From: an uncultured Armatimonadetes bacterium
GTDB taxonomy: Bacteria > Armatimonadota > Hebobacteria > Hebobacterales > Hebobacteraceae
Direction: 5' to 3'
Length of the DNA stretch: 64,000 nt
NCBI GenBank assembly: GCA_963716175.1
Contig: OY970296.1
Span: 2,944,001 to 3,008,000, forward strand
Part shown: one piece after another, positions 588 through 20,854 of the stretch
Position numbering within the stretch: position 1 is the first letter of the stretch
Layout of the letters: each line of letters starts with the position of its first letter
Position numbers and translations under genes: made by a program
Notes under the pieces: model-generated
The model's input: only the letters and a program-made list of their open reading frames with translations
Databases searched by the model: none
Told to the model about the DNA's origin: nothing

Positions 588-1676
588 CTATGTGCCTGCT
601 GACGGATTCCCTGAGCGCCCGTTGGCAAGCTCCTGGATCAGGCGTATCAGCTTGGCAGCTCGGCGCTCGGAAGAGAACTCCAGGGCTCGCGCCACCGCCT
701 TCTCGTTGTATTCGATGTTCTCGAAAACCCACCTGATCTTGTCCGCGACCTCTTGCGGGTCACTGGTGTCCATCACAATCCCCGCGTCGCCCACTATCTC
801 AGGCAGGCTCCCAGCATTGCTCACAATGGGCGTGCATCCGTGGAGCATGCTCTCCATCACCGAGACTCCAAAGCCTTCATGTTTCGAGAGCTGCAAGTAG
901 ACTTTCGACTCGCTCAGGGTCCGCGAGTATTGCTCACCCGGAAGGTAGCCCAGATAGCGCACGTTCGCTGGCGCGATCGCCCTCAACTTCTCGATAGTTC
1001 GGTCCTTGGCCTTGCCCACGTGCAGGAACGGAACGTCCGGGAACATTCTCGCCACTCGCACAAACTCGAGATGCCCCTTGCGCGCCGAACTCTCTCGCGA
1101 TATAAGGCCTACCGTGATGACCTGGTTCTTGCGTTCAGTCGCTCTTCTCGCTTCCACTCCCTTGGTGCAGCAGTAGACCATCTCGTGCCTCTTGGGATTG
1201 GCGAAGTCATAGAGCTCCCTCTGGCTGGACCTGGAGATGCTGAGGACGAGATCGGCGTTGCTCAGGGCGTAACGGGCAGCATGCTTCAGCACCGGATGCA
1301 GAGGGAGGCCGTAACCTATCTCCGGCACTCTGGCTACATCGTAGCCCCCGCACACAATCACCGTCTTCTTTCTCAGCACCTTGCCAAAGAGCACCATCAG
1401 GAAGGCGTGCAGCCCGGCGAACCACGCGAACCCAACGTCGTGCTTTCGCATCTTGACCAGCATCTGGAGTGGCGCCAGGGGTGTGTAACGGAAATGAAGG
1501 AGCGTGGCCCTGAAAGCCCGCCCGAGGATCTCGAAGTCGTTCTCCCGGAATCCTGACGGGCCGGGCCGCCAGATGCAAAGGACCCGAAGCCTGGAATCAT
1601 GCGCTCCGGTCAGGCCCTGCGGATTCGCGGAGGCCGGCAGGATCACAGGCTCTTCCTGGCTGCTGCGGCCGGTCAT
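588..1676 (-). CDS. Glycosyltransferase family 4
   Basis: GT-B motifs RKG and EGFGVSVMESMLHGCTPIVS (EX7E). Confidence 0.9.
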   Translation of the reverse strand: MTGRSSQEEPVILPASANPQGLTGAHDSRLRVLCIWRPGPSGFRENDFEILGRAFRATLLHFRYTPLAPLQMLVKMRKHDVGFAWFAGLHAFLMVLFGKVLRKKTVIVCGGYDVARVPEIGYGLPLHPVLKHAARYALSNADLVLSISRSSQRELYDFANPKRHEMVYCCTKGVEARRATERKNQVITVGLISRESSARKGHLEFVRVARMFPDVPFLHVGKAKDRTIEKLRAIAPANVRYLGYLPGEQYSRTLSESKVYLQLSKHEGFGVSVMESMLHGCTPIVSNAGSLPEIVGDAGIVMDTSDPQEVADKIRWVFENIEYNEKAVARALEFSSERRAAKLIRLIQELANGRSGNPSAGT

Positions 1677-2710
1677 GCTGCCTGAGCCGCCCGCCTACTG
1701 AGGATCTGGTACATCATCTCCGTCACGTCCACTTTCTCGTCAACTATCCGCTTCGCCTTCGCCTGCCATTCTTCACGGTGGTGGCCGGTGAGGATGGACT
1801 CGGCCTTCGCTACCGCATCCTTCATTCTCTCGGGCGGGAAGCTGAAGACGATGGCATATCTCTGCTCCTGCTCGGCAGTGGTCCCCGCGACTATGGGGTG
1901 GATGCAGATACTCGGCACCCCCAGGACCGCTCCCTCCGCGGCCATGGTGGGGCTCTCCCCGAAGATCAGCGCCGCGTGAGCCATGAAGTGGTGGATACGC
2001 GAGACCGGAAGCTTCAGGCGATACTGCTCCAGCTCGGCGGGCAGCGCCCCCTCTGATGAGACGAAAACCTTGCCGTGGCGGGCAAGGGCTTTGACCGCCT
2101 CCACCTTGTCCGCCGTGGTGAGTCCCTTCAGCCCCACGTCGTGCCCCGCGGCCCACCCCACAAACCTGACGATCGAGAACAGCTCACCAGGCTTCACCCC
2201 GGCCTCATCGAGCACCGATGGGTCGGCCTGGAAGTACTTCGGGTGCAGGTAGGCCAGCTCGTGGTAGCCCTCGTACCTCACGTGCCTCCAGCGAATCTGC
2301 TTCCGGTAGCAGCTCGGCACGTAGACGCAGGTGGCGAAGGGAAAGGAGAGCAGGTTGGATATGGTAGCGTGCTCGGTGTCGTAGAACACGTAGGTGGGAA
2401 CGCCCATCAGCTTCCCCAGAGAGCTGATGTAAGTGCCCGCAATCGCCATCATCACATCCGGCCTGAACTCCTTGATGATGTGGCGCAGCCGCCGCTGACG
2501 CCCGATCATCTCGGCCGCCAGGTTGAGCACGCCCTTCCGCGCAACCCCAAACACCTCGACCTCGAGGCCGTAGTCGCGCGCCAGCTCCACCAGGATGTCT
2601 TTGTCCCGCCCGGTGACGCGGACCTGATGACCCTCCGCCTTCAGTCTCGCAATGAGATTGCGGAAGAAGTGCACGTGAGCAGGATGCTGGAGGTCGAGCA
2701 GAACTCTCAC
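1673..2710 (-). CDS. DUF354 family protein (GT-B-like)
   Basis: N-terminal DLQHPAHVHFFRNLI, YDTEHA, YHELAYLHP and ESPTMAAEGAVLGVP. Likely start GTG 2710. Confidence 0.85.
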   Translation of the reverse strand: MRVLLDLQHPAHVHFFRNLIARLKAEGHQVRVTGRDKDILVELARDYGLEVEVFGVARKGVLNLAAEMIGRQRRLRHIIKEFRPDVMMAIAGTYISSLGKLMGVPTYVFYDTEHATISNLLSFPFATCVYVPSCYRKQIRWRHVRYEGYHELAYLHPKYFQADPSVLDEAGVKPGELFSIVRFVGWAAGHDVGLKGLTTADKVEAVKALARHGKVFVSSEGALPAELEQYRLKLPVSRIHHFMAHAALIFGESPTMAAEGAVLGVPSICIHPIVAGTTAEQEQRYAIVFSFPPERMKDAVAKAESILTGHHREEWQAKAKRIVDEKVDVTEMMYQILSRRAAQAA

Positions 2711-2832
2711 TGACCATCTCGGCGGCCCTTGTTGTCCAGCGGCCGACGCTAAGCTCATTATACTACGAAACGGCCGACCGTTCACGCCAGGCCAAAGAAG
2801 GGCGTGACTTCCTGCAGTTGGCGGCGCAGGTT

Positions 2833-3069: not shown

Positions 3070-4317
3070 TCAATCCTTCGGCACCTGCACCAGCCCGATC
3101 CGATACCAGTAGGCCTCTCCCGCCTGGTTCTCCGCGGCGAAGTCCCCGAAACGGTAGGAGGCGACTGGATCGGTGCTCCGCGAGGCGAAGGTGTGCACCG
3201 GCCGCCCATCAATCAGCAGGTCCACCTCCTGCGCGGTCCGGCGGCGCAGGATCAGCTCATGCCACACTCCTCGCGTGACGGACCCCACACCGTGCCGGCC
3301 CTCCCGATCAACCACCCAGACGAACCCCTGCTGCGGCCCCTTCTCCCCGGCGGCGCCCGGCTCATCCTCGAACTGCACCTCAATGTCGGTTGGCTTACCC
3401 TCCCGGGTGAGCGGGCAGACCACGCTGAATGCTTGATAGGGCTGCTCCGACACATACACCTGGCACCAGAACTGGTACGGGACCGCCACCTGCACCTGGC
3501 CCCACTCGGCCTGACAGCGCGCGGCCTCCTTGCCTGCAACATCCCGGAGGTAGAGCTGGGCGCGCCGCACCTCCTGGAATTCGCTGCCCTGCTCGGCCCT
3601 CCCCCCCTCTGTTGCCTGCACGCGCCACGCCCGAACCGCGCTCTGCACGGCCGCCGGGCCTTGGCCGCAGGTGATCACCGTTGCTCCCCAGTAGGCTTCC
3701 CCTGCCCCCTCCGAGGTGCTGGAGTCGCCCACCTCGACCTCGCGCGCGGGCTTGAGACCGCGGGCCTGGTAAGTCCCGATGACATCCCCGTTGATCCTCA
3801 GCTCGACTTCCTGCTCGCTCTTGCGGGCAATCTCCAGCCGATGCCAGCCAGGGCGCCGGAGATGGGCGACGCTGTGATCGCCCTTGGCATCACGGACCCA
3901 TACCATCCCGTGCCAGTCGTCTGGCGACTGCGGCAGCTTCTCCCAGGTCTCCCGGAGCATCAGGGTGATGTCGGTGGGCTCGCCAGCGCTGTCCTTTGCC
4001 TGGTAGACGACGAAGTCGTCATACATGTCTCCTATCACGTAGAGCCACCAGCTAACCCGGTAGGGTATGGTAGGTTCCCCCAGCGGAGCGCTGGCACTCG
4101 CAGTTGACCGCGCCTCGCTGCGGAGATGGAGCAGATCGCCGGCAACGGGCGCGAACTCAGGCTGGGTCTGAGCGGAGGCGCTGCCCTCCGCCCTCAACTG
4201 CCAGTGTCCCATCCGTCCTGCTGCCGCCACGTCGCACGCCAACATGAGCACGCAGAGCGCTGCCGGCCAGGCCGCGAGCAGAGCAGACCGCCTTCTTCCT
4301 GCGTTGCTTCCTAGCAT
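3070..4317 (-). CDS. Secreted protein with two tandem homologous beta-sandwich-like domains
   Basis: Signal-peptide-like N-terminus. Duplicated motifs PY.../PTDI/VWV.D..G.H/WH.L/EV.L.I[ND]G/GD/AGEAYW. Confidence 0.7.
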   Translation of the reverse strand: MLGSNAGRRRSALLAAWPAALCVLMLACDVAAAGRMGHWQLRAEGSASAQTQPEFAPVAGDLLHLRSEARSTASASAPLGEPTIPYRVSWWLYVIGDMYDDFVVYQAKDSAGEPTDITLMLRETWEKLPQSPDDWHGMVWVRDAKGDHSVAHLRRPGWHRLEIARKSEQEVELRINGDVIGTYQARGLKPAREVEVGDSSTSEGAGEAYWGATVITCGQGPAAVQSAVRAWRVQATEGGRAEQGSEFQEVRRAQLYLRDVAGKEAARCQAEWGQVQVAVPYQFWCQVYVSEQPYQAFSVVCPLTREGKPTDIEVQFEDEPGAAGEKGPQQGFVWVVDREGRHGVGSVTRGVWHELILRRRTAQEVDLLIDGRPVHTFASRSTDPVASYRFGDFAAENQAGEAYWYRIGLVQVPKD

Positions 4318-4442: not shown

Positions 4443-5006
4443 CTATTGCGGTCCTATCACATATGGCTCGAGGTCTGTGACCTTGATCCACCAGACGACC
4501 GGCGCCTGGTCCGCCGCGATCTCGAGCCTCTGCAGCCCACCCTGACCGAGGGCCAGGAACCGCAGCGTCCAGCGCTGGCCCAGCTCCGCGTCGCCGATCC
4601 ACTGGTACGAGCCGGCAGCTCCATTCTGGATCCCGTCGTAGTCACCCAGCGCTACCCCGTTGATCGCCACCTTCATCATATCGTCATCCCCATCGCCGGT
4701 CTGGGCGGTGGACCAGTTCTGCGCACACACCTGCACCCAGAGCAGGCCGCTGCTGGAGAAGAAGCGGTACTTCTGCCACCAGTAACTTGCGCGGTTCGTG
4801 CTGATGGGGTCCACCCAGAACGGTCCCCCCAGATAGGCGCCGCCCGGTCCGGTGGCGCTCCCTGGCGCCCGCTCGTTGGGGTGCACCTCCAGCAGCACTG
4901 CCGGCTCCGGTACCTGGGCCAGCCCAACCCCCCCTGTCCAGAGCACGGCCCCACACAACAACAGCGCGATCACAACAGCTCTCCCTCTAGCTCCTCTGTC
5001 CGCCAT
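4443..5006 (-). CDS. Secreted stand-alone form of the shared ~150-aa C-terminal domain
   Basis: RBS GGAGGTG before ATG 5006. Signal peptide (...GVGLA|Q) is followed directly by VLLEVHPNE...KVTDLEP. Confidence 0.8.
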   Translation of the reverse strand: MADRGARGRAVVIALLLCGAVLWTGGVGLAQVPEPAVLLEVHPNERAPGSATGPGGAYLGGPFWVDPISTNRASYWWQKYRFFSSSGLLWVQVCAQNWSTAQTGDGDDDMMKVAINGVALGDYDGIQNGAAGSYQWIGDAELGQRWTLRFLALGQGGLQRLEIAADQAPVVWWIKVTDLEPYVIGPQ

Positions 5007-5137
5007 CGTCCTCACCTCCGCGCAAACGTTTCTCCACACAGATCAACTCCCACGCTTCGCGTAGCACATTGCCAGCGATTAGTCAAGAGGCCGCGGACAC
5101 GCTTCATCTCCACCACCAGCGCGCGCCGCGTGCCCCG

Positions 5138-7003
5138 TCACGGCTCGATCACCTGCGGCTCCAGGTCCGTCACCTTCACCCACCACAGCACCGGCGCCTG
5201 GTCGGCGGCGATCTCGACTCTCTGCAGCCCACCCTGACCGAGGTACAGGAACCGCAGTGTCCAGCGCTGGCCCGCCTCGGTGGCGCCGATCCACTGCCAC
5301 CCCCCGGGAGCCCCACTCTGGATGCCATCGTAGTCCGCCAGCGCCACCCCGTTCACCGCCACTTTCGTGTTGTCATCGTCCCCGTCGCCATTCTGGGTGC
5401 CGGTCCAGTTCTGCGCACACACCTGCACCCACAGCACCCCGCTGGCCGCGAAGCGGTATTCCTTCCACCAGTAGCTGCCGCGAGCCGTGTTGATGGGATC
5501 CACCCAGTACGGTCCTCCCAGGGAGGCACCGCCCGGTCCCGCTGCGCGCCCCTGTGCCCGCTCATCCGGGTGGACTTCGAGGAGAACGTCTGGTTGGAGC
5601 GCTGGCTCCAGGACATTGAGCATGGCTTCCGCATAGTAACAGACGCCCGGCGCAATGGTGACAGGGGGGTCGGTGGAGGAGACGACGTCATAGCTGCCGT
5701 CGCCGTCGAAGTCTTGGTAGAAGTCGGCGCTGGTGATCGTGGCATCGGTACTAGCGGCGGGGTCTACGATGACCAGGACTCGCCCCAGAATCTGCACCGG
5801 GCCCAGAGGAATCCCGTCAGTCATATCCACGGCGATGCGGTTGGTATCGGTGACTGGCAGCGCGGTGCCGCCGTCGAAATAGATGGGAGCGTAGGAGTCC
5901 CAGCACGTGGGGACAGCTGTGGAAGAACCGAGATAGACGTAGCCGCGCTGGGAGTGGTTGATACCGGCCACCGCGTAGAGCCTGGGACGGTAGTTGTCGC
6001 GGTCGTCGTTGTAGTAAGCGTAGGGCCCGAAAGTGCTCTCCAGGAACATGCTGTAGGCAACCCAGAAGAAGCCTTTGCTCCCGAGGCCGGTGGAGTTGCG
6101 CACGCCCCAAATGTTGCCCCAGGAGTTGGCCATGAGAAAGGCGCCGTAGTGTGTCTGCCCATCCCGGTGGTCAACATAGCTCTTGCTGTCGCTGTAGCCC
6201 ACGATGGTGACTGCATGTCCCCCCTCGGGAGGGCCGTCGGGGTAGTAGTAGACGCCATTGTTGACGCCGGTGCCATCAGCGGGGTAGTACCAGTACCAGG
6301 TCCGGAACACCGCGGAGTCGGTGGCGGCCAGGTTGCCATTGGCGAGGTGCTGCTTGATGGTGTCGAGGCCTGAGGGAGTGGAACCGTCAATCACATGGGG
6401 GGTCTGGGTGCGGTTCTCGAGGGCCTGCACCCAGGCCGCCTCGGAGGGCCATGTGGTCCAGTCGCTTTGACTGTAGGGTTTCAGGGTCCAGTTCGAGCAG
6501 CCGATATCGCTGAGCCGGGCGACGACGTACTGTGTGTTCGCGCCATTGTCCCCCCCGCCGTTGACCAGGGGATACATGAAGGCTGGACTACAGGTATGGT
6601 CAGGATCCCAGGTGGAGACGTCGCGGTTCTCGTCGGCGGCTTGCGTGAAGGTGTTGTAGTAGTAGCAGCCGGCCCAGCAGGTGCAGGAGCCCTGTCCGCC
6701 CTGGTTTCCGATGGGAGGGAAGTACTGGAGGGTGCTGTTGTCCACGGCCGCGGGCAGCGAGGCCGAGGCAGGCGGTGTTCCGCGGTGCAGGCGGGCGGCC
6801 TTGGCTTCGGCCTGGGCGCGCGCTCTGGCGAGGTCGTTGGGCGCAATGTGGGTGACCCTGGTATAGACGGCATCAATGTAGGCTTGCTCTTCCGGAGTCG
6901 GGGGGCGATGGCCGAGGCCGCGCCCCTGTGCCAGAGAGCTTGATACCACGCAGACGAGAAGGAGAGGAACCAGCAAGCAAGTGACAGCATGGCGCGCGAT
7001 CAT
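5138..7003 (-). CDS. Secreted papain-like (C1) cysteine peptidase + shared C-terminal domain
   Basis: QGGQGSCTCWA (Cys), GGHAVTIVGY (His), ANSWG (Asn). RBS GGAGGG before ATG 7003; signal peptide. Confidence 0.88.
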   Translation of the reverse strand: MIARHAVTCLLVPLLLVCVVSSSLAQGRGLGHRPPTPEEQAYIDAVYTRVTHIAPNDLARARAQAEAKAARLHRGTPPASASLPAAVDNSTLQYFPPIGNQGGQGSCTCWAGCYYYNTFTQAADENRDVSTWDPDHTCSPAFMYPLVNGGGDNGANTQYVVARLSDIGCSNWTLKPYSQSDWTTWPSEAAWVQALENRTQTPHVIDGSTPSGLDTIKQHLANGNLAATDSAVFRTWYWYYPADGTGVNNGVYYYPDGPPEGGHAVTIVGYSDSKSYVDHRDGQTHYGAFLMANSWGNIWGVRNSTGLGSKGFFWVAYSMFLESTFGPYAYYNDDRDNYRPRLYAVAGINHSQRGYVYLGSSTAVPTCWDSYAPIYFDGGTALPVTDTNRIAVDMTDGIPLGPVQILGRVLVIVDPAASTDATITSADFYQDFDGDGSYDVVSSTDPPVTIAPGVCYYAEAMLNVLEPALQPDVLLEVHPDERAQGRAAGPGGASLGGPYWVDPINTARGSYWWKEYRFAASGVLWVQVCAQNWTGTQNGDGDDDNTKVAVNGVALADYDGIQSGAPGGWQWIGATEAGQRWTLRFLYLGQGGLQRVEIAADQAPVLWWVKVTDLEPQVIEP

Positions 7004-7172
7004 CCGTCGTCCCTCCGGCTGTGGCTGAAGGCGATGGCCATTGTCCTCAACCTGATTAGGGAGAAGGGCCCTCGCCCGGCCCGTATGCAGTGATGCAGCA
7101 AGAAGGCCGGCGTACTCTACCACGCGCCTCGCGAATCGGCAAGCGTTTGACGGGTGTGAGCCGCGACCTGGC

Positions 7173-8657
7173 CTAGGGCGGAGGCGCGACGACCCCCGCC
7201 TCCAGGTCCGTCACCTTCACCCACCACAGCACCGGCGCCTGGTCCGCGGCGATCTTCACGCTCTGCATCCCAGGGGCCCCGAGAGCCAGGAACCGCAGCG
7301 TCCAGCGCTGGCCCTGCTCCGTGGCGCCGATCCACTGCCACCCCCCGGGAGGCCCGTTCTGGATGCCGTCGTAGTCCGCCAGCGCCACCCCGTTGATCGC
7401 CACTTTCGTGTTGTCGTCGTCCCCGTCGCCGTTCTGGGTGGCGGCCCAGTTCTGCGCACACACCTGTACCGACAGCACCCCGCTGGCGGCGAAGCGATAC
7501 TCCTGCCACCAGTAGCCTGCCACGAGCTTGTTTATCGGATCCACCCAGTACGGTCCGCCCAGGGAGGCGCCGCCCGCTCCTATTGTGCGCCCTGGTGCAC
7601 GCTCGTTCGGGTGCACCTCCAGCACCGCCTTCGGCACCATCAGAATGCCCACGTGGACGACCTGGCCGTTCTCTGTATCCGCCACCCAGCAGGAGCCGTC
7701 AGTCGGGTTGACGGAGACGGACCAGGGGTTCCGGAACCCCCCGGTTCGCGACACCTCGCTGCCGCCTGCGGCCAGGTGCACGACCTGGTTGTTGCCCGTG
7801 GCCGCTACCCAGCAGGAGCCATCCGTGGCGTTGACCGAGACGCAATTGGCCATGGAGAACCCGCCTGCCCGCGACAGTTCGGTGGTGCCGTCCGGGGCCA
7901 GGTGGACGACCTGCGTCCCGTAGTCCACCACCCAGCAGGAGCTGTCTGTGGGGTTCACAGAGACAGAGTAGGGGTGGTAGAACCCGCTTGCGCGCGACAG
8001 TTCGGTGGTGCCGTCCGGGGCCAGGTGGACGACCTGGCCGTTGTCTGTGTCCGCCACCCAGCAGGAGCCGTCCGCCGGGTTGACGGAGACGGAGTAGGGA
8101 TTGTAGAACGTCGGAAACCCGGCGGTTCGCGACCACTCCGTGGTGCCGTCCGGGGCCAGGTGGACGACCTGGTTGTTGTTGGTGTCCGCGACCCAGCAGG
8201 AGCTATCGTTCGGGCTCACCGAGACGGATCGGGGGTCATTGAACGTCGGGTACCCCACCTGCGACGACACGGTGGTGCCATCGGAGGCCAGGTGGACCAC
8301 CCCACTGCCTGCGCTCCCCACCCAGCAGGAGCCGTCAGTGGGGTTGGACGAGACGGACCGCGGCTCTATGACGGCCTTCCAGGACAGGGAGTTGCCGTCT
8401 GCATCCACGTGGCCCACCTGCCAGGGAAACGTCTCGTAGCCATAGTCCGCTACCCAGCAGGAGCCATCTGACGGGTTGACGGAGACGGACACGGGATAAG
8501 GGAACCACGGGGTCGGCCACCCGGGGCTGCGCCACAACTCCGAGACCACCTCCGCTGCCTGGGCCATCGTGTTGAGGCCAAACATGGCCGGACAGGCCCA
8601 GAGCAATACCGTCGCCAGAAGGGGAACAAACAGACGTGACCGCGCTGACCCTCGCAT
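7173..8657 (-). CDS. Secreted NHL-like beta-propeller (7 repeats) + shared C-terminal domain
   Basis: Seven P.SVSVNP.DGSCWVAD..N.QVVHLA.DG repeats; signal peptide. Confidence 0.85.
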   Translation of the reverse strand: MRGSARSRLFVPLLATVLLWACPAMFGLNTMAQAAEVVSELWRSPGWPTPWFPYPVSVSVNPSDGSCWVADYGYETFPWQVGHVDADGNSLSWKAVIEPRSVSSNPTDGSCWVGSAGSGVVHLASDGTTVSSQVGYPTFNDPRSVSVSPNDSSCWVADTNNNQVVHLAPDGTTEWSRTAGFPTFYNPYSVSVNPADGSCWVADTDNGQVVHLAPDGTTELSRASGFYHPYSVSVNPTDSSCWVVDYGTQVVHLAPDGTTELSRAGGFSMANCVSVNATDGSCWVAATGNNQVVHLAAGGSEVSRTGGFRNPWSVSVNPTDGSCWVADTENGQVVHVGILMVPKAVLEVHPNERAPGRTIGAGGASLGGPYWVDPINKLVAGYWWQEYRFAASGVLSVQVCAQNWAATQNGDGDDDNTKVAINGVALADYDGIQNGPPGGWQWIGATEQGQRWTLRFLALGAPGMQSVKIAADQAPVLWWVKVTDLEAGVVAPPP

Positions 8658-8878
8658 CGCCCTACACCTCCCGTTACCGCGGAACTGCGCAGGTCGCCCC
8701 CCGCCCGGGGCCCTCGCCTTAACCCCCTCAGCAGGAGACTCAACCGGATTGGCGGTCTAGTGCCGTTGCCGGCCGCCTTCGCCTCCCCCCTTGCGATTCC
8801 TCTCTCTCGGCAAAGGCGTTTTCCCGCTTCTCTTGAGTTGGCCTGGCCGCCCCCGGCAGCCCAGGCGCGCCGCGCCTC

Positions 8879-11698
8879 CTAGGGAGAGATCACCTGCGGC
8901 TCCAGGTCCGTCACCTTCACCCACCACAGCACCGGCGCCTGGTCCGCCGCGATCTTCACGCTCTGCATGCCAGGGGCCCCGATTGCCAGGAACCGCAGCG
9001 TCCAGCGCTGGCCTTGCTCCGTGCTTCCGATCCACTGCCACCCCCCGGGAGCCCCGTTCTGGATGCCATCGTAGTCCGCCAGCGCCACCCCGTTGACCGC
9101 TACTTTCGTGTTGTCATCGTCCCCGTCGCCGTTCTGGGCGCCGGCCCAGTTCTGCGCACACACCTGCACCCACAGCACCCCACTGGCCGCGAACTTGTAC
9201 TCCTGCCACCAGTAGACTGCGACGAGCTTGTTTATGGGATCCACCCAGTAGGGTCCGCCCAGAGAAGGGCCGCCCGCTCCCGCTGCGCGCCCCTGTGCCC
9301 GCTCGTTCGGGTGCACCTCCAGCACCACTGCTGGCGTCGGCCCCGCCTGGATGACGTACCCCATGGGCGGAACCGTGCCCCCCTCCGGCAGTGTCTGGGC
9401 GTGGTCGGCGAAGTTGACGGCGATGGTGGTGCCCGAGGACCAGATAGTGCGCTGAAGGGTATGATCACTGGTCAGGAACTCGTGGGAGAGCAACTCGTCG
9501 TAGCCGATCTGGCGCACGGTTGGGCAAACGCTGCGGTAGGACTGGACGAAGCGAGACTTGTACTGCTCCCAGACCCCGGGGCTGAGCATGAAGAGAGGCG
9601 GTGTGCCGTAGAGCAGGTTGAATAGATCTCGCTGATCCCACACTTCCGGAGCTTTGTTGGAGGAGTCTCCCCAGTACCAGTACGCAACCGTGCAGTCGTG
9701 GTAGACCAGCTCCCACAGCGGAACCCGGTAGTAAGGCCCCACCTGGTACTTCAGGAACTCGGGCGTGGGCGGCTTGTAGTCTATGAGCGTGTAGCCGGAG
9801 TCGGGCAGCCGGTATGGCCCGAGCGACATCATGCCTTCGTAGTAGTGCACGTAGGGAACCGAAGGGTCTATGCCAGTCTCGCTGCCCGTGACCTGGCTCA
9901 TGTCTTGGGAGCAGAACCGCAGCAGTTCCATCTTGTAGTTTCGGTCCTGGGTGCGAGAAGTCGGGTGGTCGGGGTTGTAGCACTCCTTCCAGTCCGCGGC
10001 GGTGGTGGTGTCAATGAAGCGACAGCGATATGGGGTTGTCGCCAGGTCCTCCGGGATGTGGATCTGGGAGTGCTCGAGGCCCCTCGGCGAGCAGATGACG
10101 CCTCCCGGATAGAGGGCCTCGCCATCGCGGATTACCCAGCCCGGCATGATGCTCCCATCGGGCAGCCAGATCAGGTCCTCTGGCCAGCCCTCGTGATTCG
10201 CCCAGGCCGGCGAGTCGGGGGGCCAGACATCCTGGTAGATGTCGTAACGGCTCGTCAGAACGCCGGGCATCGCGTTCATCGCGGCGACGTTCTCAGGAGA
10301 GGTGCCTTCGCTCCAGAGCATCCGCGCAATGCCCAGGGATCGCATCTCCGTCGCAAGACCGATCGGATCGGTGTTGCCGTACCAGTACGGAGCCCACACG
10401 TTGACCGCGCCGATAAGGAGGTCTACGTTCGGGTTGACCTCCCTCTTCTCGAGCAGCGACCGGTAGCGCCCTGTGTCCTGCGCCCACTGCCGGTAGCGCT
10501 TGGCCTGCGAGACGTAGCCGCCCGCAGCAAGGAAGACATAGGTCAGTGCTCGGCTGTAGGCAAAATCGCCGCGCGAGGGCTCCCACTCCGGCCAGATGCA
10601 CAGGTTGGCGTTCCCGCCCGCGTTTGGGCGGTCCATGCGGATATGCATATCATCCGGGTCCTCGATGATAGCCATGACGCCGGGGTCTTGCTCGCCGTCG
10701 CACTGCCCGAACCATGGCATCGAGATGCCGTGGCCCGAATAGCCAACCAGCCAAAGCGGCTCGACCGTCTCGTCATCGGCCGGGTAGATGATGCCCTCAT
10801 TCATCGGTACAACCAGCAACGAGCCGTCAGGCGCCAAGAAGGGCGCGGGGTAGGGCAGATTATGGACCATGGCGCCAGAGCCGCTCAGCTCACACCTGAA
10901 CTCGACCGCCGAGGGGATGATATCAACCTGCATTTGCACCTGGAGGTCGGATGCCGGTTCCCACAGGGTCACTGTCATGCCGTCGGCTTCAGCGTCCCGC
11001 TGTGCGTGCAGGACCACGGGCAAGCCGGAGATGGCGAGCTGGCTGTAGACGCGGCCGTTCCGGAGGTCCGTGCACGTGAACGTGGCCGACCCAGTGTGGA
11101 AGACGACAGTCAGCAGGCTGTTCCCGATCGCGATGTCCTCGGCCGGCCCTCTGATGTCTATGATGTTGCCTTCCTTCACCAGAGAGACGTCGTCGAACCA
11201 GGCTGTGCCCGGCCCCCAGCCCACGACACGAAGCTGGATCGTCGCGCAGTTGTCGGGCGCGACGAAGTGGGTCAGCACTTGCCTCCAGTCGTGTGTGCCC
11301 GAGCTATTGGCCGGGCCCAGGAGCCAGTCAATCACAGCCCCGTCAGTGTCACGGGCAACGACGCTGTAGTCCACCTCGCCATTGAGGTTGTCGCACTTGA
11401 TCCAGCCCGAGAGCTCGAAGATGTCGCCGCCGGTCACGCTCAGCAATGTGTCCTGCGTGACACACCAGTCTTGGTCCCCAGTGTGGGCGACTTGAAGGCA
11501 GAAGCTGCCGGAGTGCGCTCCCCCCACCTGCGAGGCGGTGGTCGTGCCCGGCTCTCGCTCCCACATCGAGGGCCAACCCACTGACAGCGGCTCCTCGAAA
11601 CCGGGGTTGACGGCCAGGTTCCCGGACTGGGCAGAGCAGACACCGGGTAGCACGCTCACGACCACGAGCGCCGCCAGCAAGGGTGCGAGTCGCATCAT
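8879..11698 (-). CDS. Secreted CBM4/9-like + putative glycoside hydrolase (GH129/GH101-like) + shared C-terminal domain
   Basis: NLAVNPGFEE...AHSG...WFDDVSL CBM signature. Catalytic-type region with FIDTTTA, GSETG and VPLWELVYHD. GH family assignment is tentative. Confidence 0.7.
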   Translation of the reverse strand: MMRLAPLLAALVVVSVLPGVCSAQSGNLAVNPGFEEPLSVGWPSMWEREPGTTTASQVGGAHSGSFCLQVAHTGDQDWCVTQDTLLSVTGGDIFELSGWIKCDNLNGEVDYSVVARDTDGAVIDWLLGPANSSGTHDWRQVLTHFVAPDNCATIQLRVVGWGPGTAWFDDVSLVKEGNIIDIRGPAEDIAIGNSLLTVVFHTGSATFTCTDLRNGRVYSQLAISGLPVVLHAQRDAEADGMTVTLWEPASDLQVQMQVDIIPSAVEFRCELSGSGAMVHNLPYPAPFLAPDGSLLVVPMNEGIIYPADDETVEPLWLVGYSGHGISMPWFGQCDGEQDPGVMAIIEDPDDMHIRMDRPNAGGNANLCIWPEWEPSRGDFAYSRALTYVFLAAGGYVSQAKRYRQWAQDTGRYRSLLEKREVNPNVDLLIGAVNVWAPYWYGNTDPIGLATEMRSLGIARMLWSEGTSPENVAAMNAMPGVLTSRYDIYQDVWPPDSPAWANHEGWPEDLIWLPDGSIMPGWVIRDGEALYPGGVICSPRGLEHSQIHIPEDLATTPYRCRFIDTTTAADWKECYNPDHPTSRTQDRNYKMELLRFCSQDMSQVTGSETGIDPSVPYVHYYEGMMSLGPYRLPDSGYTLIDYKPPTPEFLKYQVGPYYRVPLWELVYHDCTVAYWYWGDSSNKAPEVWDQRDLFNLLYGTPPLFMLSPGVWEQYKSRFVQSYRSVCPTVRQIGYDELLSHEFLTSDHTLQRTIWSSGTTIAVNFADHAQTLPEGGTVPPMGYVIQAGPTPAVVLEVHPNERAQGRAAGAGGPSLGGPYWVDPINKLVAVYWWQEYKFAASGVLWVQVCAQNWAGAQNGDGDDDNTKVAVNGVALADYDGIQNGAPGGWQWIGSTEQGQRWTLRFLAIGAPGMQSVKIAADQAPVLWWVKVTDLEPQVISP

Positions 11699-11944
11699 CG
11701 GCCTCCGAATGAGTCAGGTGACGCGCCCAATCAGTGCGAAGTTTACCACAGATGACAGCAAAATGCGCCTGGCATGCGCCGCCAGCTGCGCGGGGCGCCT
11801 CCTGCTACGGTATCACCAGGCCCCGCCACGCCTGAGAACCCTTGACAATAACAGACGTCAGCAGTTGCCGGCCTCAAGGCCCTTGCGTGTTCGCCACCCC
11901 GAGGCTAACATAGGGCCAATCAAGCGCTATGCGCGGGCAGAGTC

Positions 11945-12030
11945 AGGATATCCCGGGGGGATGGAGCGCGCGGCACCATAGGTCTTCCCGCCCATATGCT
12001 GGAGCCGTGGATCCCCCCCGGGGATATCCT
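11945..12030 (+). promoter_or_regulatory. Long inverted repeat in the 5' leader next to the RBS
   Basis: AGGATATCCCGGGGGGAT (11945-11962) pairs with ATCCCCCCCGGGGATATCCT (12011-12030). GGAGG RBS and ATG 12044 follow. Confidence 0.5.
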
Positions 12031-12043
12031 CAGGGAGGCGAAG

Positions 12044-15000
12044 ATGCGCGGTGTTTGGCTAGGAGCCGTTGTCCTCTTCCTGCTGGTTCTTTCCCCTGCT
12101 CTGGCTCTTGCGGACCTCTACGTCATCTCCGACTTCGAGGGCGAGGCCGACCTGGCGAATTGGGGGGCCTGGGGCTGCGTAGACCCTTGCCCGGATCCGG
12201 GGGCGCCCATGCCGGCGATCCCCTCCCTGTATGCAGGATACGCCACTGATGGCAGCTACAGCTGCCGCCTGGAGCTGCCGGCAGCGGACTATCCTGGCCT
12301 GTACCTGAGCACCTTTCCCATGAACGACTGGTCGGCCTACGATGTGGTCCGGCTGGATGTCTACAACCCCAACTCGTTCGCGGTGACCATCAATCTGGAG
12401 ATGGGTGACTCGCAGACCGGCTGGCAGAAGCGCTACGACTCGGGGCGAGCGATCATCCCAGGGCTCAATCACCTGGAGGTTGATCTCCACACTTTGGCCC
12501 GCAATGATGGCAGTGGGAACGTGGAGCCGGCGGACATCCAGCACTTCAGCTTCTGGTTCGCAGGTTACAGTTCGACCATCTTCGTCTACATGGACTACGT
12601 CCGCCTGGAGACGGTTCACGATGACCCTGGAGCCGACGCCGCCCGGAACATCTGGAAGTTCGACTTCGGCACCGCCACCTCACCCCGGTGGAGAGACTTC
12701 TTCCGGGTAACCGAGTCGGACAGCGACAACTACCCAGTGGATCCGACCACCATGCCTTCCGGATGGGTCTATAGCCAGGCGGATCAGATTCGTGTCAGCG
12801 GCGACTACGGCGGTCCGGATGACATGACCCGCGATTTCGTGCGGGGGATCCCCTGCAGCAACGTCTGTTACCCTGGTGACTCCGATCTCGACTTCCGGGT
12901 GGACGTGCCCAATGACAGCTACACGGTCTATGTGATTACCCGGTCGGGCAATCCCAGCGCCATGCCGGTGAGGAACTGGCAAGTCTGGGCGGAAGGGGCG
13001 CTCCAGGTGGATGTGCCGATGGATTCGGGCACCTTCTACAGCACTAGCTACTACTACCGGGGCATGGACGAGGACTACCCGCTGAGCCGATCCGCCTGGG
13101 AGCAGTTTGAAAACGCCAACTTCCCCGCCTATAGCTTCACCACTGGCGTCACCGACGGCAGCCTCGACCTGCATTTCGTCCAGTGCTGGCTCTATGCCCT
13201 GATAGTCTACCCCACCGACCTCGCGGGTGAGATGAGCACCCGGATCGCGGACTGGGAGGCCCAACGGCAGGTGCAGTTCGAGACCGCCTATTACATCAAC
13301 GCGCCGCAGGACCTCACTTTCACACCTACCGGCGAGGAGGCCCTGCGCGGCTACGCCGCCTGGCCGGTGGCGACCATGGATGCCTGCTACCCGGACACCC
13401 TGCCGCCCTCCCCGCGGCCCGCGTTGGCGCTCAGCGCTGCGGCCTCTCAGGGCGAGTACCGGTCGCTCAGCTTCGCCATTCGGCCCCTCAACGAGCTCAC
13501 CGATGTCTCCCTCCAGGTGAGCGACCTGAGCGACGGGCATGGGCATACTATCCCCAGCGCGGAGATCGAGCGGCGGCATGTGCGCTACATGGCGACTGCC
13601 GATAGCGAGGTTTTCGGTTCCGGAGTGCTGACCTGGAAGCCGCGGCTGCTGCAGAGCAACTTCCCCATCGCGGTTGCCAGCCAGGTGACCAAGCAGTTTT
13701 GGCTCACCGTACACGTACCGGTGGGCACTCCTGCCGGGACCTACGCCGGCACGGTCACGCTGAACACCTCGGCTCAGGCGCTGGTGCTGCCGCTGACGGT
13801 GGTAGTCTGGCCCTTTCAGTTGGACGCGGCGAACGACATGGCCTATGGCTGGTACTACATGTCGCCAGACCAACGCTACTGCTACGAGTTCTTTCCGGAT
13901 ATGGCGAGCGCGGGGGACGACATGCTCCGTCTCGACTTCGCGGATATGAGGAAGCACGGCTTCAACTCCCTTCAGTTCCCATGCCCGTGCTGCCTGGATA
14001 TCAACCCCACTAGCGGCCACGTGGGCACGCTGGACTTCACCGAGCCCAATCGCTACCTGGCGGCCATGGGTGATGCCGGCTTCGGCGGGGCCTGGAAGGG
14101 CCAGGTGGTGACGATCGACCTCGCCAACCGTATCCGTGAGTACAGCTCCGTGAGCGAGTTCGACACCAACTTCAACAACGCGTACAAGGATGTCATCGAG
14201 CAGGATCTTGGCCTGGGGAAATACAGTGGGCACTCCGCTGGTGATGTGCCTCTTGGACGAGCCCCGGGAGAGCGGGATCCAACCGTGGAACCGTAACTTC
14301 GCGGACACCATGCAGTACTGCGACCTCGCCCATCAGGTCGCCGGGGCCACCACTACCGTGACCGTGATGCGGGACGACCAAGAGGGGGTGGACTACACCC
14401 CGCTGGCGGATGCCCTGGACATCATGCAGACCCACCCCTGGTCGAACTCAGCCGGGTTGATCAGCGGTTCCCTCTCTCAGGGCAAGCCGATCTGGTTCTA
14501 CAACACCGGCGGCAACCTGCGCCTCGTATACGGTTTCTACCAGCTCAAGTGGCCCAGTGACGGCGCCTGGGAATGGCACTACGACTGGCTCGACAGCGAC
14601 GTCTTCGATCCTTTCCCCTACAGCCCGTTCAACAATCACTGGCGCTACACCTATCCCTCGTCGGCTGGCCCGGTGGCCACGCTCAAGTACGAGTGGGCGA
14701 GCCAGGGGATCACCGACTACCGCTACGCCGCCACCCTCGATCGCCTTTCCCGCGAGGCGCGGGCGACCGGCCTGCCTGCTTTCATCGCCTGGGCCGATGG
14801 CGCAGACGCGCTGCTGCAGTCGCTCAGAGATGACGTGCCCGAGTACCCGATCAGCGGCGGGGACTGGTACACTGGTCAGACTCAGCACTTCGCTGGCATC
14901 CCGGAGGGTCCGGGCTGTCTCACCATGGTCGAGCAGGCGCTAGATAGCTATCGGCAGCGCATCAGCGAGATGATCATGTCTCAGCCGACTGCTCAGCCGG

Positions 15001-15470
15001 CCGTGGTGCCCCAGGTTCTCCTCGAAGTCCACCCGAACGAGCGGGCACCGGGGCGCGCGGCGGGAGCGGGCGGCGCCTCTCTGGGCGGACCCTACTGGGT
15101 GGATCCCATAGGCAAGCTCGTCGCAGTCTACTGGTGGCAGGAGTACAAGTTCGCGGCCAGTGGGGTGCTGTGGGTGCAGGTATGTGCGCAGAACTGGACC
15201 GGCACCCAGAATGGCGACGGGGACGATGACAACACGAAAGTGGCGGTGAACGGGGTGGCGCTGGCGGACTACGATGGCATCCAGAATGGGCCTCCCGGGG
15301 GGTGGCAGTGGATCGGCGCCACGGAGGCGGGCCAGCGCTGGACGCTACGGTTCCTGGCCGTTGGCGCCCCTGGGATGCAGAGCGTGAAGATCGCCGCAGA
15401 CCAGGCGCCGGTGCTGTGGTGGGTGAAGGTGACGGACCTGGAGCCGCAGGTGATCAGCCCATTCGAGTAG
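12044..15470 (+). pseudogene. Secreted CBM-like + GH123/DUF4091-like glycoside hydrolase + shared C-terminal domain; frameshift near 14198 (real or assembly error)
   Basis: ORFs 11996-14296 and 14190-15470 overlap. Removing one G near 14198 joins KDVI to SRILAW. Motifs QFWLTVHVP..TPAGTYAG, LDEP, IWFYN and YEWASQGITDYRY. Confidence 0.7.
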
Positions 15471-15732: not shown

Positions 15733-16656
15733 CTAGCCTTCCTCATCGCCGGCTGGCCCGAGCATCCCCTCCAGCTTCTCCACCGCGGCCAGCTTGGTGC
15801 GTACATCGGAATGCAGGTATCTCGCCGTCGTCCCGATGTCTGCGTGCCCCAGCAGCTCCTGCACCGTGCGGATGTCGGCACCGGAGCGAATGAGGTGGGT
15901 GGCGAAGGTATGGCGTAGTCTGTGGGGGGTGATGCCTTTGCCCGCGAGCCCGGCTTTCCCGAGCGTGCGCTGGAGCATCCGGCTGATGGCTCTGCCGCAG
16001 ATGGGCTCTCCGAACTGACTCACGAACAACCGGTGGCTCTGAGTCTGGACTCGGTGGGGGAGGTACTGCTCGATGGCAGCCACGGCCTGATCGGCCAGAG
16101 GCACTACTCTCTCCTTCGCCCCCTTCCCGTGCACCAGGAGCTGCCGGTTCTCCAGGTCCAGATCCTCCAGGCTGATCTGGGCGATCTCGCTGCGCCGCAG
16201 GCCGGTGGAGAGCAGCAGCACCACCAAGCACTTATGCCAGGGGCGCTGGGCGGCCTCCAGCAACCGCTGGGCATCTGCTTCCGTGAGCGTCACCGGGACC
16301 TGCTGTTCGAGTCTGGGCAGAGGCAGCCTGCGGGCGGGATTGCCCGAGACATGGCCCATGTCCTGGAGGAAGCCAAACAAGGAGGACAACACCCAGAGCT
16401 TCCGTCTCACCGTCAGGGGTGCTCGCTGTGACAGGCTCACCGCGAACTGCATCACTTGCTGGCGCGTGATCTGACCGGGAGGGGGCAGCTGGCTCAGGCG
16501 CTGGGAGAGGAACTCCGAGAAGGCGCGCAAGTCGCGGCGGTAAGCCTTGACGGAGATAGGAGCGCAACTGCGATAGCCCTTCAGATACTCCAGGAACATC
16601 GCCACCGCCTCCTCAAAGGAGAGCGTGTGGGCCTCGGCGTCGTGGGCAGCGGTCAT
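15733..16656 (-). CDS. Tyrosine recombinase, XerC/D-like
   Basis: TGLRRSE (R), GKGAKER (K), HRLRHTFAT (HxxR), LLGH and TARY catalytic residues; N-terminal SAM-like domain. Confidence 0.95.
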   Translation of the reverse strand: MTAAHDAEAHTLSFEEAVAMFLEYLKGYRSCAPISVKAYRRDLRAFSEFLSQRLSQLPPPGQITRQQVMQFAVSLSQRAPLTVRRKLWVLSSLFGFLQDMGHVSGNPARRLPLPRLEQQVPVTLTEADAQRLLEAAQRPWHKCLVVLLLSTGLRRSEIAQISLEDLDLENRQLLVHGKGAKERVVPLADQAVAAIEQYLPHRVQTQSHRLFVSQFGEPICGRAISRMLQRTLGKAGLAGKGITPHRLRHTFATHLIRSGADIRTVQELLGHADIGTTARYLHSDVRTKLAAVEKLEGMLGPAGDEEG

Positions 16657-17618
16657 GGCTGTGCTCCCTCCTCTGGCTGCGGAACGCTCTCTCCGAGCAG
16701 CCCCGTCAGCCTCCCGACGGCCGCCAGCTTGGTCCGCACATCCGAGTGCAGGTAGCGGGCCGTCGTCCCCAGGTCGGCATGGCCCAGCAACTCCTGCACG
16801 GTGCGCACGTCCACGCCCTTGTGGATGAGCTGGGTGGCGAAGGTGTGGCGCAGCTTGTGAGGGGTAATCCCCTGGCCCGCCAGCCCCGCCTTCTCCAGGA
16901 TCTCATCGAGCGCCGCGTTGATCACGTGGCCTCGGAGGGGTTGCCCACGGGAGTTCACAAAGAGCCGGCGGCTCGGGGTGTGGGGCCGGTGGGGCAGGTA
17001 CTGCTGGATGGCCGCCACGGCCTGACGGGTGAGGGGGACGATGCGCTGCTTGGCTCCCTTTCCGTGCACCAGCAGCTGCCGGTTGGTCAGGTCCACGTCC
17101 TCCAGGCTGATCAGCACCGCTTCGCCTCTGCGGATGCCCGTCGCCAGCAGCAGCATGATGAGGCACCGATGCCAGGGCAGTTCGGCCGCCGCCAGCAGTT
17201 GCTGCGCCTGCTCCTCTGAGAGCGTCACCGGTATGTGCTGCTCCAGCTTCGGGAGCGGCAGCCTCTTGGCGGGATTGCCCTGGAGATAGCCCATATCCTG
17301 GAGGAAGCCGAAGAAGGAGGAGAGACAGGCCAACTTGCTGCGCACCGTGATCGGGGACCAGTGCGACAGGGAGACCGCGTACTGGATCACCAGCTGGCGC
17401 GTGATCGCAGCTGGAGCTGGCAGCGGCCCGGGCTGGGAGGCGAGGAACTGCTGGAAGTTGCGCAGGGTCGTGGCATAGGCTTGGACAGAGGCAGGAGCGC
17501 AACTGCGGTAGCTCCGCAGGTACTCCAGGAACATCGGCACCGCCTGCTCCAAGGGGAGCTCGTTCCCTGTGGAGGGCGGCGCGGCACGGGCCGCTTGGGC
17601 CTGGGCGAGAGTGGTCAT
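16653..17618 (-). CDS. Tyrosine recombinase, XerC/D-like (paralog of the adjacent gene)
   Basis: TGIRRGE, GKGAKQR, HKLRHTFAT, LLGH, TARY. RBS GAGGAGG before ATG 17618; 4-bp overlap with the downstream paralog. Confidence 0.95.
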   Translation of the reverse strand: MTTLAQAQAARAAPPSTGNELPLEQAVPMFLEYLRSYRSCAPASVQAYATTLRNFQQFLASQPGPLPAPAAITRQLVIQYAVSLSHWSPITVRSKLACLSSFFGFLQDMGYLQGNPAKRLPLPKLEQHIPVTLSEEQAQQLLAAAELPWHRCLIMLLLATGIRRGEAVLISLEDVDLTNRQLLVHGKGAKQRIVPLTRQAVAAIQQYLPHRPHTPSRRLFVNSRGQPLRGHVINAALDEILEKAGLAGQGITPHKLRHTFATQLIHKGVDVRTVQELLGHADLGTTARYLHSDVRTKLAAVGRLTGLLGESVPQPEEGAQP

Positions 17619-17815
17619 GCACGCCTCCTCTGGTGGATGGTTGCGGCATGACATGAATCACTTCAAGCGGCGAACAAGTCCAGGCCTTTGTGCAAGTATT
17701 CTGTGGGGTGGGCCCTAGTGCGGGTATTTTGTACCCCCTCGATTTCGGGCCAGGATGGCTCTAGGAGCCATGAAAAGGGTGGAGTGGGCCGATAAGCCGA
17801 GGTCGCGATTGAATG

Positions 17816-18045
17816 GTAGAGGATGAGTAGAGGTTAGGTGGAGGATTTCGGGCGCTGTGGGCGGTTTGCCGGCTTTCCGGGCACGACATCAAGTTGCGGC
17901 GAACGGGACTGAACGGCTGCAGGACGCCGCGTGAGAGGATTCCGCAGCGCCGCTTTCATGTCCGGGCGACTCCGCGCGAAGTAGAGGATCAGTAGAGGAT
18001 CGGTAGAGGTTGAGTAGGGGATCTGGGCCTCGCGGAGTAGAGGAT
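17816..18045 (+). repeat. Array of 9-bp direct repeats (GTAGAGGAT consensus) with 11-bp spacing
   Basis: Copies start at 17816, 17827, 17838; 17981, 17992, 18003, 18014; and 18037. Partial GAGAGGAT at 17933. Confidence 0.9.
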
Positions 18046-18319
18046 CGGCCAGGTCTCCGCCACCAAGGCCTCACCCAAGGCATCGTCACAAGCGGAGCAG
18101 CGTACAGATCCCGCGCTGGCATGATGATGCCGGCACCTGACGCCGACGGGCCGCAGCCGCGATCGGGCCGCTCGCATCGCCGGTCGGCTTCTGCCATCGC
18201 CTCCCAACTCGACGCGGTCGCTGTGCTCGCGCGGTGGCCTGAGCGACAGGCGGACGATCCGACCCAACCCTTCTCCCTCGCATGGGCGACCAGGATGCGG
18301 AGGTCGCACTAGGAGGCTC

Positions 18320-18349
18320 TTGACATCGGCTTGTGATATAGGCTATAGT
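18320..18349 (+). promoter_or_regulatory. Sigma70-like promoter of the HTH/terminase operon
   Basis: TTGACA-18 nt-TATAGT, 30 nt before ATG 18379. Confidence 0.65.
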
Positions 18350-18378
18350 GCATAAGACCCATACTCAGGGGTTCGGCA

Positions 18379-18906
18379 ATGACCGAGAAACAGATCGGCA
18401 AGAGGCTTCGCAAACTGCGCAAGAAGCGGCGTCTGCGCCAGCAGGATCTAGCGCTCGCGATTGAGGGCATCGACGCGGTGGTGGTGTCACGCTGGGAGAA
18501 CGGGGAGGGCCTGCGGCGCTTTATCCGCCACGCGCCCGAGCTCATGGTGCTGCTGGGCCCCGATGTCTGGCGGCTGGTGTACCAAGCAGCCGACACCATC
18601 CATCGCCGAGACGACTGGGAGTGGGTCGGCCCCATCGCCAAAGCGCTCACCGACCTCTTGCGAGAGAAGACTCTGCGCGTGCGGGCCCGGGCACGGGCAG
18701 AGAGATGGATGCTTCCTGACTTCCCCACTCTGGAGGAGGTGGCGGAGCGGCTCGGCAGGAAGGAACCGCTGTCGTTGATGGACCAGCTCCACCTCTCGGA
18801 CGCCATCTGGTGCACGGACATCACCCGGGGGTGGCAGTTGACGGAGCAGCAACGTAGGGCGGCCACCCGCGCCCACCGGCGCACGACCAGGCCGCCGGAT
18901 CTCTAG
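18379..18906 (+). CDS. XRE-family HTH protein
   Basis: IGKRLRKLRKKRRLRQQDLA...VVSRWENG. Confidence 0.75.
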   Translation: MTEKQIGKRLRKLRKKRRLRQQDLALAIEGIDAVVVSRWENGEGLRRFIRHAPELMVLLGPDVWRLVYQAADTIHRRDDWEWVGPIAKALTDLLREKTLRVRARARAERWMLPDFPTLEEVAERLGRKEPLSLMDQLHLSDAIWCTDITRGWQLTEQQRRAATRAHRRTTRPPDL

Positions 18907-18925
18907 CTCATATCAGCCGTCGGTC

Positions 18926-19573
18926 ATGGCGGGAGCGAGGCAGCACATGAGCGGCGATCAAAGCACGGAGCAGGGCCTCAGATCATGGGATCGCCAGCTT
19001 GGTGAGAGCGAGCTGGCCCACCAGGCCTTCCTGGCATACCGGGATTCCGGGATTCCCCGGAACCTCGCCGCTACCGCGCGAGCGCTGGGCAAGCACGAAG
19101 GCCAGCTCTATCGCTGGAAGGATCGGCACGGGTGGGGCTACCGCCTGCTGGCCTGGGACGCGGCGCAGGGGAAGGCAGCGGAGGAGACGGCGCAGCGGGA
19201 ATGGGAGAGGCGCCGGCGCCGCTGGAGCCAGGCCGGAGATCACGTCCTGCAGGCCCTGCTGAGCAGACTGCTGGGCCTCATCACCACCGATCCCGAGACA
19301 GGCAAGGCGGCGCTGGATGGGAGAGTCAAGCTCGAACTCGGGCTGGGCATCGGGGAGTTCATCATGAAGTTCCAGCGCTGGCTGGCGGAGGCCCCTGCCG
19401 GCCCCGACGGGCCACCGGAGGCGGGCCCCGAGCTTCGCCGGATGGCGAGCGTGGAGCTGGAGAAGCTGAAACAACTGGCACTGGAGCAAGACACCGACCA
19501 CGAGGAGGCAGGAGGCGATGGCAAGCCGAAGTCGAGGCGCAAGCGCAGCGAGAGCGCGCAGACGCGCTCCTGA
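18926..19573 (+). CDS. Putative terminase small subunit (phage HTH protein)
   Basis: GESELAHQAFLAYRD...LAATARALGK...YRWKDRHGW..R..AWD motif; helical C-terminus; located upstream of TerL. Confidence 0.6.
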   Translation: MAGARQHMSGDQSTEQGLRSWDRQLGESELAHQAFLAYRDSGIPRNLAATARALGKHEGQLYRWKDRHGWGYRLLAWDAAQGKAAEETAQREWERRRRRWSQAGDHVLQALLSRLLGLITTDPETGKAALDGRVKLELGLGIGEFIMKFQRWLAEAPAGPDGPPEAGPELRRMASVELEKLKQLALEQDTDHEEAGGDGKPKSRRKRSESAQTRS

Positions 19574-20816: not shown

Positions 20817-20854
20817 GCGGTCATTGGGTTTCCGACGCACCCGAGGTGAAGGTG

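Follow-up and report, generated by a model that had tools for sequence, protein, structure and literature searches.

According to passages of PMC3297441, triplets of the S-layer homology (SLH) domain tether secreted proteins to pyruvylated wall carbohydrate, and passages of a preprint (bioRxiv 10.1101/2025.04.02.646754) report that anchors are swapped between homologous proteins of Firmicutes, along with wall-polymer enzymes. Few non-covalent envelope anchors are known (SLH, CWB2, SH3, choline-binding and LysM domains), most of them from cultured monoderms. Here we describe a C-terminal domain, called X, carried by five genes of a 64,000-nucleotide stretch of DNA from an uncultured Armatimonadetes bacterium (contig OY970296.1, positions 2,944,001 to 3,008,000); the window will mean this whole stretch. 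X forms a new domain family, and its role can be deduced from a natural exchange with SLH in a lineage that is uncultured and has outer-membrane genes alongside dozens of SLH-tagged enzymes: judging from the sequences, it most likely attaches secreted enzymes non-covalently to the envelope, as an alternative to SLH.

The triple SLH domain (PF00395), with its CsaB-pyruvylated polymer, and the CWB2, SH3 and choline-binding domains resemble X in being terminal on many unrelated secreted proteins. These anchors are also, like X, exchanged at the same junction between homologues, and coexist with other anchors in one genome, according to passages of the same preprint. X probably works like the SLH and CWB2 anchors, yet it belongs to no described family tested. 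Unlike SLH, it is a single beta-sandwich domain instead of three helical repeats, and has no PF00395 match; it comes with a free subunit and a linked partner gene, Y, encoding tandem LamG domains, it is more strongly homogenised within a genome, and its host has outer-membrane markers. Carbohydrate-binding modules (CBMs) of families CBM22, CBM35, CBM36 and CBM61, and the GH115 C-terminal domain (PF17829), have a fold like that of X (Z 7.0-8.3, root-mean-square deviation 2.6-4.1 Å, 100-116 residues); X differs from them in having no Pfam match in the core members scanned, in its long extra loops (residues 42-74), and in occurring on proteases and as a free protein.

Other terminal tags are less alike. 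The C-terminal domain of the type IX secretion system (T9SS; TIGR04183), PEP-CTERM with exosortase and LPXTG with sortase share with X the C-terminal position on signal-peptide proteins. X is twice as long as the T9SS domain and does not match TIGR04183, a profile that gave no match in five genomes and none in control genomes either, T9SS machinery genes not being searched for. X has no PEP-CTERM or LPXTG motif, transmembrane helix or basic tail, and no linked processing enzyme; an exosortase match in the source genome lies away from the X loci, and none exceeds the cut-off in the three other X-positive genomes. In dockerin-cohesin systems, a terminal tag of genome-specific sequence, borne by diverse enzymes, has a dedicated partner. 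X is similar in its terminal position, its genome-specific sequence and its candidate partner Y; it matches no dockerin profile, its fold differs, Y consists of two lectin-fold domains with no anchor, and no multi-repeat scaffold containing X-partners was found. An earlier reading of the window, the original prediction, had held that the module matches, by eye, none of the motifs of these systems, and the comparisons with SLH, TIGR04183, PEP-CTERM, LPXTG and dockerin agree with it.

Domain X and its exchange with the SLH triplet

Four genes on the minus strand of the window and a divergent one on the plus strand end in a common C-terminal domain of 152-154 aa, the five copies being 69-92% identical over that length. 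The original prediction of five clustered genes sharing a C-terminal module of about 150 aa holds, at the places it gave; its reading of the window was incomplete, a frameshift at 14198-14199 and the partner gene Y having escaped it. The relevant features are the following:

4443..5006, minus strand: free X gene, signal peptide and X only, 187 aa (X at 4446-4907; ATG at 5006, GGAGG ribosome site)
5138..7003, minus strand: cargo B, papain-like C1 protease with C-terminal X (5141-5596)
7173..8657, minus strand: cargo C, NHL beta-propeller with C-terminal X (7176-7637)
8879..11698, minus strand: cargo D, CBM4/9-like and GH129 glycoside hydrolase with C-terminal X (8882-9337)
12044..15470, plus strand: cargo E, GH123-like protein with C-terminal X (15006-15467), frame broken at 14198-14199
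3070..4317, minus strand: partner Y, secreted 415-aa tandem LamG-type protein, directly downstream of free X
588..2785, minus strand: GT4 and DUF354 glycosyltransferase genes, downstream of Y, at the edge of a large surface-polysaccharide region
C1:27005-29395 and C1:148466-151366, beyond the window in the source genome: two further X open reading frames (ORFs), cargo G (locus L001) and locus L002

The cargos are those first proposed: the NHL propeller (PF01436, E 3e-12), GH129 (E 2e-21) and a GH123-N-like domain (E 4e-11) are found by profile, and the C1 protease is recognised by the Cys/His/Asn motifs visible in its sequence, its PF00112 match (E 0.032) falling below the cut-off. All five genes have hydrophobic N-termini that look by eye like the predicted signal peptides, and X has no transmembrane stretch, as was also claimed: the 19-residue hydropathy is at most 1.57 over 103 copies. 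A profile of the five window copies applied to the whole 4.56-Mb source genome finds seven X ORFs, each with E<1e-91, and no weaker match down to E 0.01; on this profile, the recurrence of X lies far beyond chance.

In what follows, G000 is the source genome, G001-G014 are other genomes of its family, and L and P numbers denote fetched loci and homologous proteins. G000 has 49 SLH ORFs, mostly with three repeats at the C-terminus, and two matches to CsaB-type pyruvyl transferases. Paralogues of three of its six own cargos (B, C and D), 47-60% identical to them, end in a triple SLH instead of X, and the triplet begins 3-5 residues past the aligned end of the cargo. The same replacement is seen across genomes: orthologues with triple SLH exist for cargo D in G003 and G008 (62-64% identity), for cargo B in G011 (46%), and for cargo G in G010, G013 and G014 (69-72%), with a junction offset of 3-6 residues. 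Among 20 fetched loci of cargo G, SLH stands at the junction in three; other cargo G loci have spacer domains ahead of SLH, or a cut end. In all, 42 of 73 cargo sequences align to a G000 SLH protein up to the SLH junction, five own cargos being counted twice. X and SLH never occur on one protein, either among 148 scanned, a set that includes non-X proteins, or among the seven X proteins of G000. By these alignments, X occupies the SLH position on homologous cargos, and this exchange is the main ground for reading it as a placement module, and not as a catalytic or substrate module; it also gives direct comparative support to the wall anchor or assembly module that the original prediction listed among its options. 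SLH itself is widespread here, with 25-150 matches in each of 15 family genomes and 1-2 in six of the eight other order or class genomes searched. Two SLH proteins (G000:C1:38766-44420 and 1090095-1091663) share another C-terminal domain of about 150 aa, behind the SLH triplet.

A query made of the five near-identical copies found no relatives in a contig scan; a wider alignment recovered them. X is present in 3 of the 14 other family genomes and in none of 46 more distant ones. A survey of 401 genomes of the phylum, with nine candidates scored per genome, gives four X-bearing genomes, all of one family and the same four as in the family survey, which fits the lineage-specific character first suggested. 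That family is probably Ca. Hebobacteraceae, Armatimonadota: among the named X-bearing loci, 12 of 13 are Ca. Hebobacteria or Ca. Hebobacterum and one is labelled Bacillota, with placement in Armatimonadota. The class Hebobacteria was described from anoxic sediments (PMC10290634), in a text whose available passages do not mention the domain, and no description of X was found in the literature on Hebobacteria and on the SLH, S-layer and envelope of Armatimonadota, supplements and subscription papers being outside this search.

Protein searches yield 105 full-length core homologues, and X lies at most 15 residues from the C-terminus in 103 of them. Thirty consist of a signal peptide and X only. 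A further 67 are long fusions, 35 with a hydrophobic N-terminus and the other 32 mostly 5'-incomplete in appearance, by eye. The fusion partners include S8, C1 and M6 proteases, GH123-like and GH129 proteins, PD40 and NHL propellers, and PKD or other Ig-like repeats. The C-terminal position first predicted thus stands for the core family, with two exceptions, P0025, where X comes first, and P0086, with 85 residues beyond X; it does not stand for remote homologues that form N-terminal pairs in four proteins without signal peptide (profile probability 97.8%). In four other secreted proteins, further remote homologues form 14 tandem repeats of about 120 aa, close to the C-terminus (profile probability 99.6%). 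The core family shows neither a strong match to Pfam or a CBM family nor an arbitrary position, two outcomes that would have spoken against the original prediction. No relatives of X were found in viral contigs. By its distribution, X is an undescribed terminal module, confined to one lineage and borne by secreted proteins that are unrelated to one another. P0046, P0049, P0051 and P0053 are lysine-rich proteins without signal peptide, which start with two remote X-like domains and continue into an unassigned C-terminal part.

Sequence, fold and companions of X

X sequences group by genome rather than by cargo. A tree was built of 68 domains from fetched loci, after removal of 15 duplicate or near-duplicate loci; in it, the seven G000 copies fall together with L044 in a single clade (98/95), and most of the free copies stand beside cargo copies from the same contig or organism. 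Sixteen cross-record pairs of orthologous cargos, chosen by hand, tell the same story: in 12 of them the cargos are 65-88% identical and the X domains just 41-56%; in one of the remaining four the X domains are 90% identical, and in the other three the cargos reach 55-64% and X 48-60%. The X domains of unrelated G000 cargos are 79-93% identical. At fourfold-degenerate sites, identity is 75-88% among the six cargo copies of G000 and 53-66% between these and the free copy; for 36 SLH triplets the median is 47% (20-79%). The site identities, the tree and the pairs therefore indicate that X has been copied or converted within the genome at the DNA level.

Core X matches no family of Pfam, NCBIfam, PHROGs or the PDB sequences: 12 X domains gave nothing at E<=1 against NCBIfam, the PDB sequence search returned a single chance-level row (E 1.2), and Foldseek with the X model found nothing at E<=0.001 in the PDB. 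The remote homologue P0044 has a link to GH115_C (E 7e-4, below the cut-off) and one weak PHROGs row, and the Atlas leads for X are all below 0.9. An AlphaFold2 model from 68 sequences (pLDDT 90.3, pTM 0.85) predicts an all-beta sandwich with long loops. In a wide structural search its top match is the EclA sugar-binding domain (Z 8.7, 2.5 Å, 99 residues), nearly tied with Eph ligand-binding domains (8.5), the GH115 C-terminal domain (8.3) and CBM22 (8.2), then with BclA C1q-like, CBM36, CBM61 and CBM35 domains (Z 7-7.8); viral matches are generic jelly rolls and C1q-like tips. As modelled, X is a galactose-binding-like, CBM-like jelly roll that fits no particular family, and so a distant member of a known superfold. 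A complex prediction with three X copies gave a median of 0.20, against a mark of 0.42, a value that weighs neither for nor against self-association.

Residues kept in at least 85% of the 105 copies include the EVHPNER stretch, W64, Y75, W77, Q96, Q102, D109, D122, Q135-W136, R145 and W173. The most variable segments are the GDGDDD loop (segment 104-113) and residues 54-73. The argument for calcium binding from GDGDDD is weakened here: D109 and D122 are the sole residues of the two acidic motifs, GDGDDD and DYDG, that reach 85% conservation among the homologues, and GDGDDD was rejected as a family-wide Ca2+ site. A hydrophobic C-terminal tail, poorly ordered in the monomer model, follows X in 52 of the 105; 53 are without it, and its reading as a universal processing signal was rejected as well.

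Y, with a signal peptide by eye, is the sole unrelated gene that recurs beside X in the fetched loci: the genes around X include no recurring family of transporters, outer-membrane barrels or peptidases, and the dedicated transporter or peptidase whose co-occurrence the original prediction proposed to check is missing there. Y is the next gene after X in 11 of the 11 loci that hold it, some from the same or close strains, behind a free X in nine and a cargo in two; the X directly upstream has the hydrophobic tail in all 11. It is single-copy, present in 3 of 23 genomes (G000, G007 and G014), all X-positive, and has 16 homologues at 50-59% identity. Its model (pLDDT 89.5) predicts two concanavalin/LamG-type domains, resembling laminin LG4-5 (Foldseek E 4e-8), a sialidase BT_1020 domain (Z 18.4), and galectins, CBM40, CBM66 and PL7 lyases (Z 12-14). 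Free X stands without Y behind it in L023, L036, L072 and L081. By eye, the free X of L086:2-559 has a lipobox before X, and L088:1-519 and L082:1002-1562 have an apparent membrane anchor; the next gene in L086 and L088 encodes a multi-pass membrane protein that looks O-antigen ligase-like, with no Pfam match. G013 has three more diverged free X paralogues (L023:6602-7222, L028:2-1103), whose tails are rich in cysteine; two stand in tandem, and sulfatase genes lie next to them.

The X cluster lies within a region of about 90 kb rich in GT2 and GT4 glycosyltransferase and nucleotide-sugar genes. Counting loci of at least 6 kb, with duplicates merged by hand and glycosyltransferase profiles taken from G000 genes only, free X is at most 5 kb from a GT2 or GT4 gene in 4 of 11 distinct loci, and at 5.8 kb in a fifth. 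For background, 8.3% of the G000 genome and 3 of the 49 SLH ORFs are near such genes. Of 22 distinct cargo-only loci, many with short flanks, none is near such a gene, although three lie beside ABC genes of Wzm/Wzt type. Free X also neighbours genes for sulfatases, methyltransferases and WsaF-like transferases. As for the envelope, Omp85, LpxC and secretin matches are found in all five family genomes tested, with nine secretin matches in the host, and a cultured member of Armatimonadota is diderm by cryo-EM, according to passages of PMC11535203. Dozens of triple-SLH enzymes in a diderm are unusual, and this bears on the envelope type.

Possible roles of X

An envelope attachment module is the conclusion common to two readings, a glycan anchor and a protein-docking tag. 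We lean towards the first, in which X would bind a strain-specific envelope glycan directly. Cargos would be exported through their N-terminal signal peptide, as their sequences suggest, and the folded C-terminal jelly roll would then retain them on the envelope, non-covalently. As ligand we consider most likely a strain-specific glycan of the envelope, the product of the glycosyltransferase genes nearby, and free X and the tandem-lectin Y could be coat or adaptor subunits on the same glycan. We prefer this account because of the exchange with SLH, the CBM-like fold, the unrelated substrates of the cargos, and the free X genes near glycosyltransferases. The positional exchange, the fold class, the gene linkage and the homogenisation within genomes are shown here; we infer the binding, its ligand, the roles of free X and Y, and the compartment, either the periplasm or the outer surface of a diderm cell.

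Several observations weigh against a glycan anchor. Cargo G is untagged in G001, G006, G012 and G014: the tag is thus optional, and its role is not indicated thereby. Six of the 11 free-X loci have no GT2 or GT4 gene in the fetched DNA; moreover these loci are kin, so that the enrichment is not a valid statistic, and we identified no family of glycan genes whose presence goes with that of X. The structural match is of medium strength and does not single out a family: against the model, C1q/BclA-type and Eph domains do no worse than CBMs. In G013, with 10 X matches, Y was not found with the query used. Finally, a pure glycan anchor alone leaves unexplained the retention of free X in most X-bearing lineages.

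Docking or self-assembly, where free X, with Y or, in another subfamily, as a membrane-tethered X, builds a lattice or scaffold joined by cargo X, much as a dockerin binds a cohesin or a minor subunit enters an S-layer, is possible but clearly less probable. It draws on the 30 free proteins, on Y standing directly behind X wherever it occurs, on the poorly ordered tail of every Y-linked X, and on the apparent lipobox and membrane anchors of L086, L082 and L088. Free X also clusters with cargo copies of its own genome, and orthologous cargos carry diverged X, as if the tag had to match a scaffold. However, gene conversion or recent copying can produce homogenisation without selection; the free X is the most diverged copy of G000 (70-76% identity, versus 79-95% among cargos); Y, of just two domains and without an obvious anchor, does not resemble multi-cohesin scaffoldins; and the tailed free X of L072 and L077 has no Y behind it. 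We entertain, as tentatively as docking, a wider scheme in which X, free X and Y would form a surface-display system assembled on the cell's own surface glycan, enzymes being enrolled by a genome-matched X kept compatible by gene conversion. If so, a diderm cell would send the same enzymes to two places, to the wall by means of SLH and to another layer by means of X.

We consider it improbable that X is an export signal across the outer membrane in the manner of the T9SS C-terminal domain, although the host has diderm markers (Omp85, LpxC, secretins), X is terminal in nearly all homologues, and SLH and X versions of an enzyme could be its periplasmic and exported forms. The N-terminal X of P0025, the extension of P0086, the tandem-repeat homologues and a free gene that carries no cargo speak against it, as does Y being the sole recurrent partner. 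The export tag that the original prediction had proposed is weakened too by cargos that are SLH-tagged or untagged elsewhere, by the lack of a recurrent transporter, barrel or peptidase near the fetched loci, and by the half of the family without C-terminal tail. Just as improbable is an ordinary substrate-targeting CBM for an environmental polysaccharide. The fold, the conserved Trp and Tyr residues and the weak transitive link to GH115_C through P0044 would suit it, but X is fused also to proteases, propellers and Ig-rich proteins, and diverges by genome rather than by cargo. Substrate CBMs are usually stacked with SLH, and X never is.

X offers a small (150 aa), well-folded module with a named candidate partner and candidate ligand genes. 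Should it bind a strain-specific glycan or a matching scaffold, it could serve as an orthogonal surface-display tag, and it would bear on the placement of hydrolases in Armatimonadota.

Frameshifts, and possible mobile genes near cargo E

The gene of cargo E is split by a one-base insertion at 14198-14199. The extra base most likely arose in the assembly or as a private mutation, because it is absent from a paralogue 96.5% identical over 3 kb and from close-relative contigs of two runs. Apparent frameshifts also split G000 genes at C1:2003243-2004867, 1647194-1649772 and 874018-876658, which suggests indel errors in this single-contig assembly.

The paralogue, L002 (G000:C1:148328-151358), is a 5'-truncated copy of cargo E, with X and about 140 bp downstream of it; it lies directly behind a Wzt-linked gene and has lost its signal peptide. 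Right beside cargo E, at 15733-22429 of the window, a pair of tyrosine recombinases in tandem is followed by a ParB-DNA-methylase fusion and by a terminase-like gene. L058 has a comparable set, an integrase piece and a ParB-like gene, about a different X-bearing cargo, and it may be that cargo genes are moved by a mobile element. Further on, in the downstream glycosyltransferase-rich region, an ORF of 2031 aa occupies positions 39266-45361 of the plus strand.

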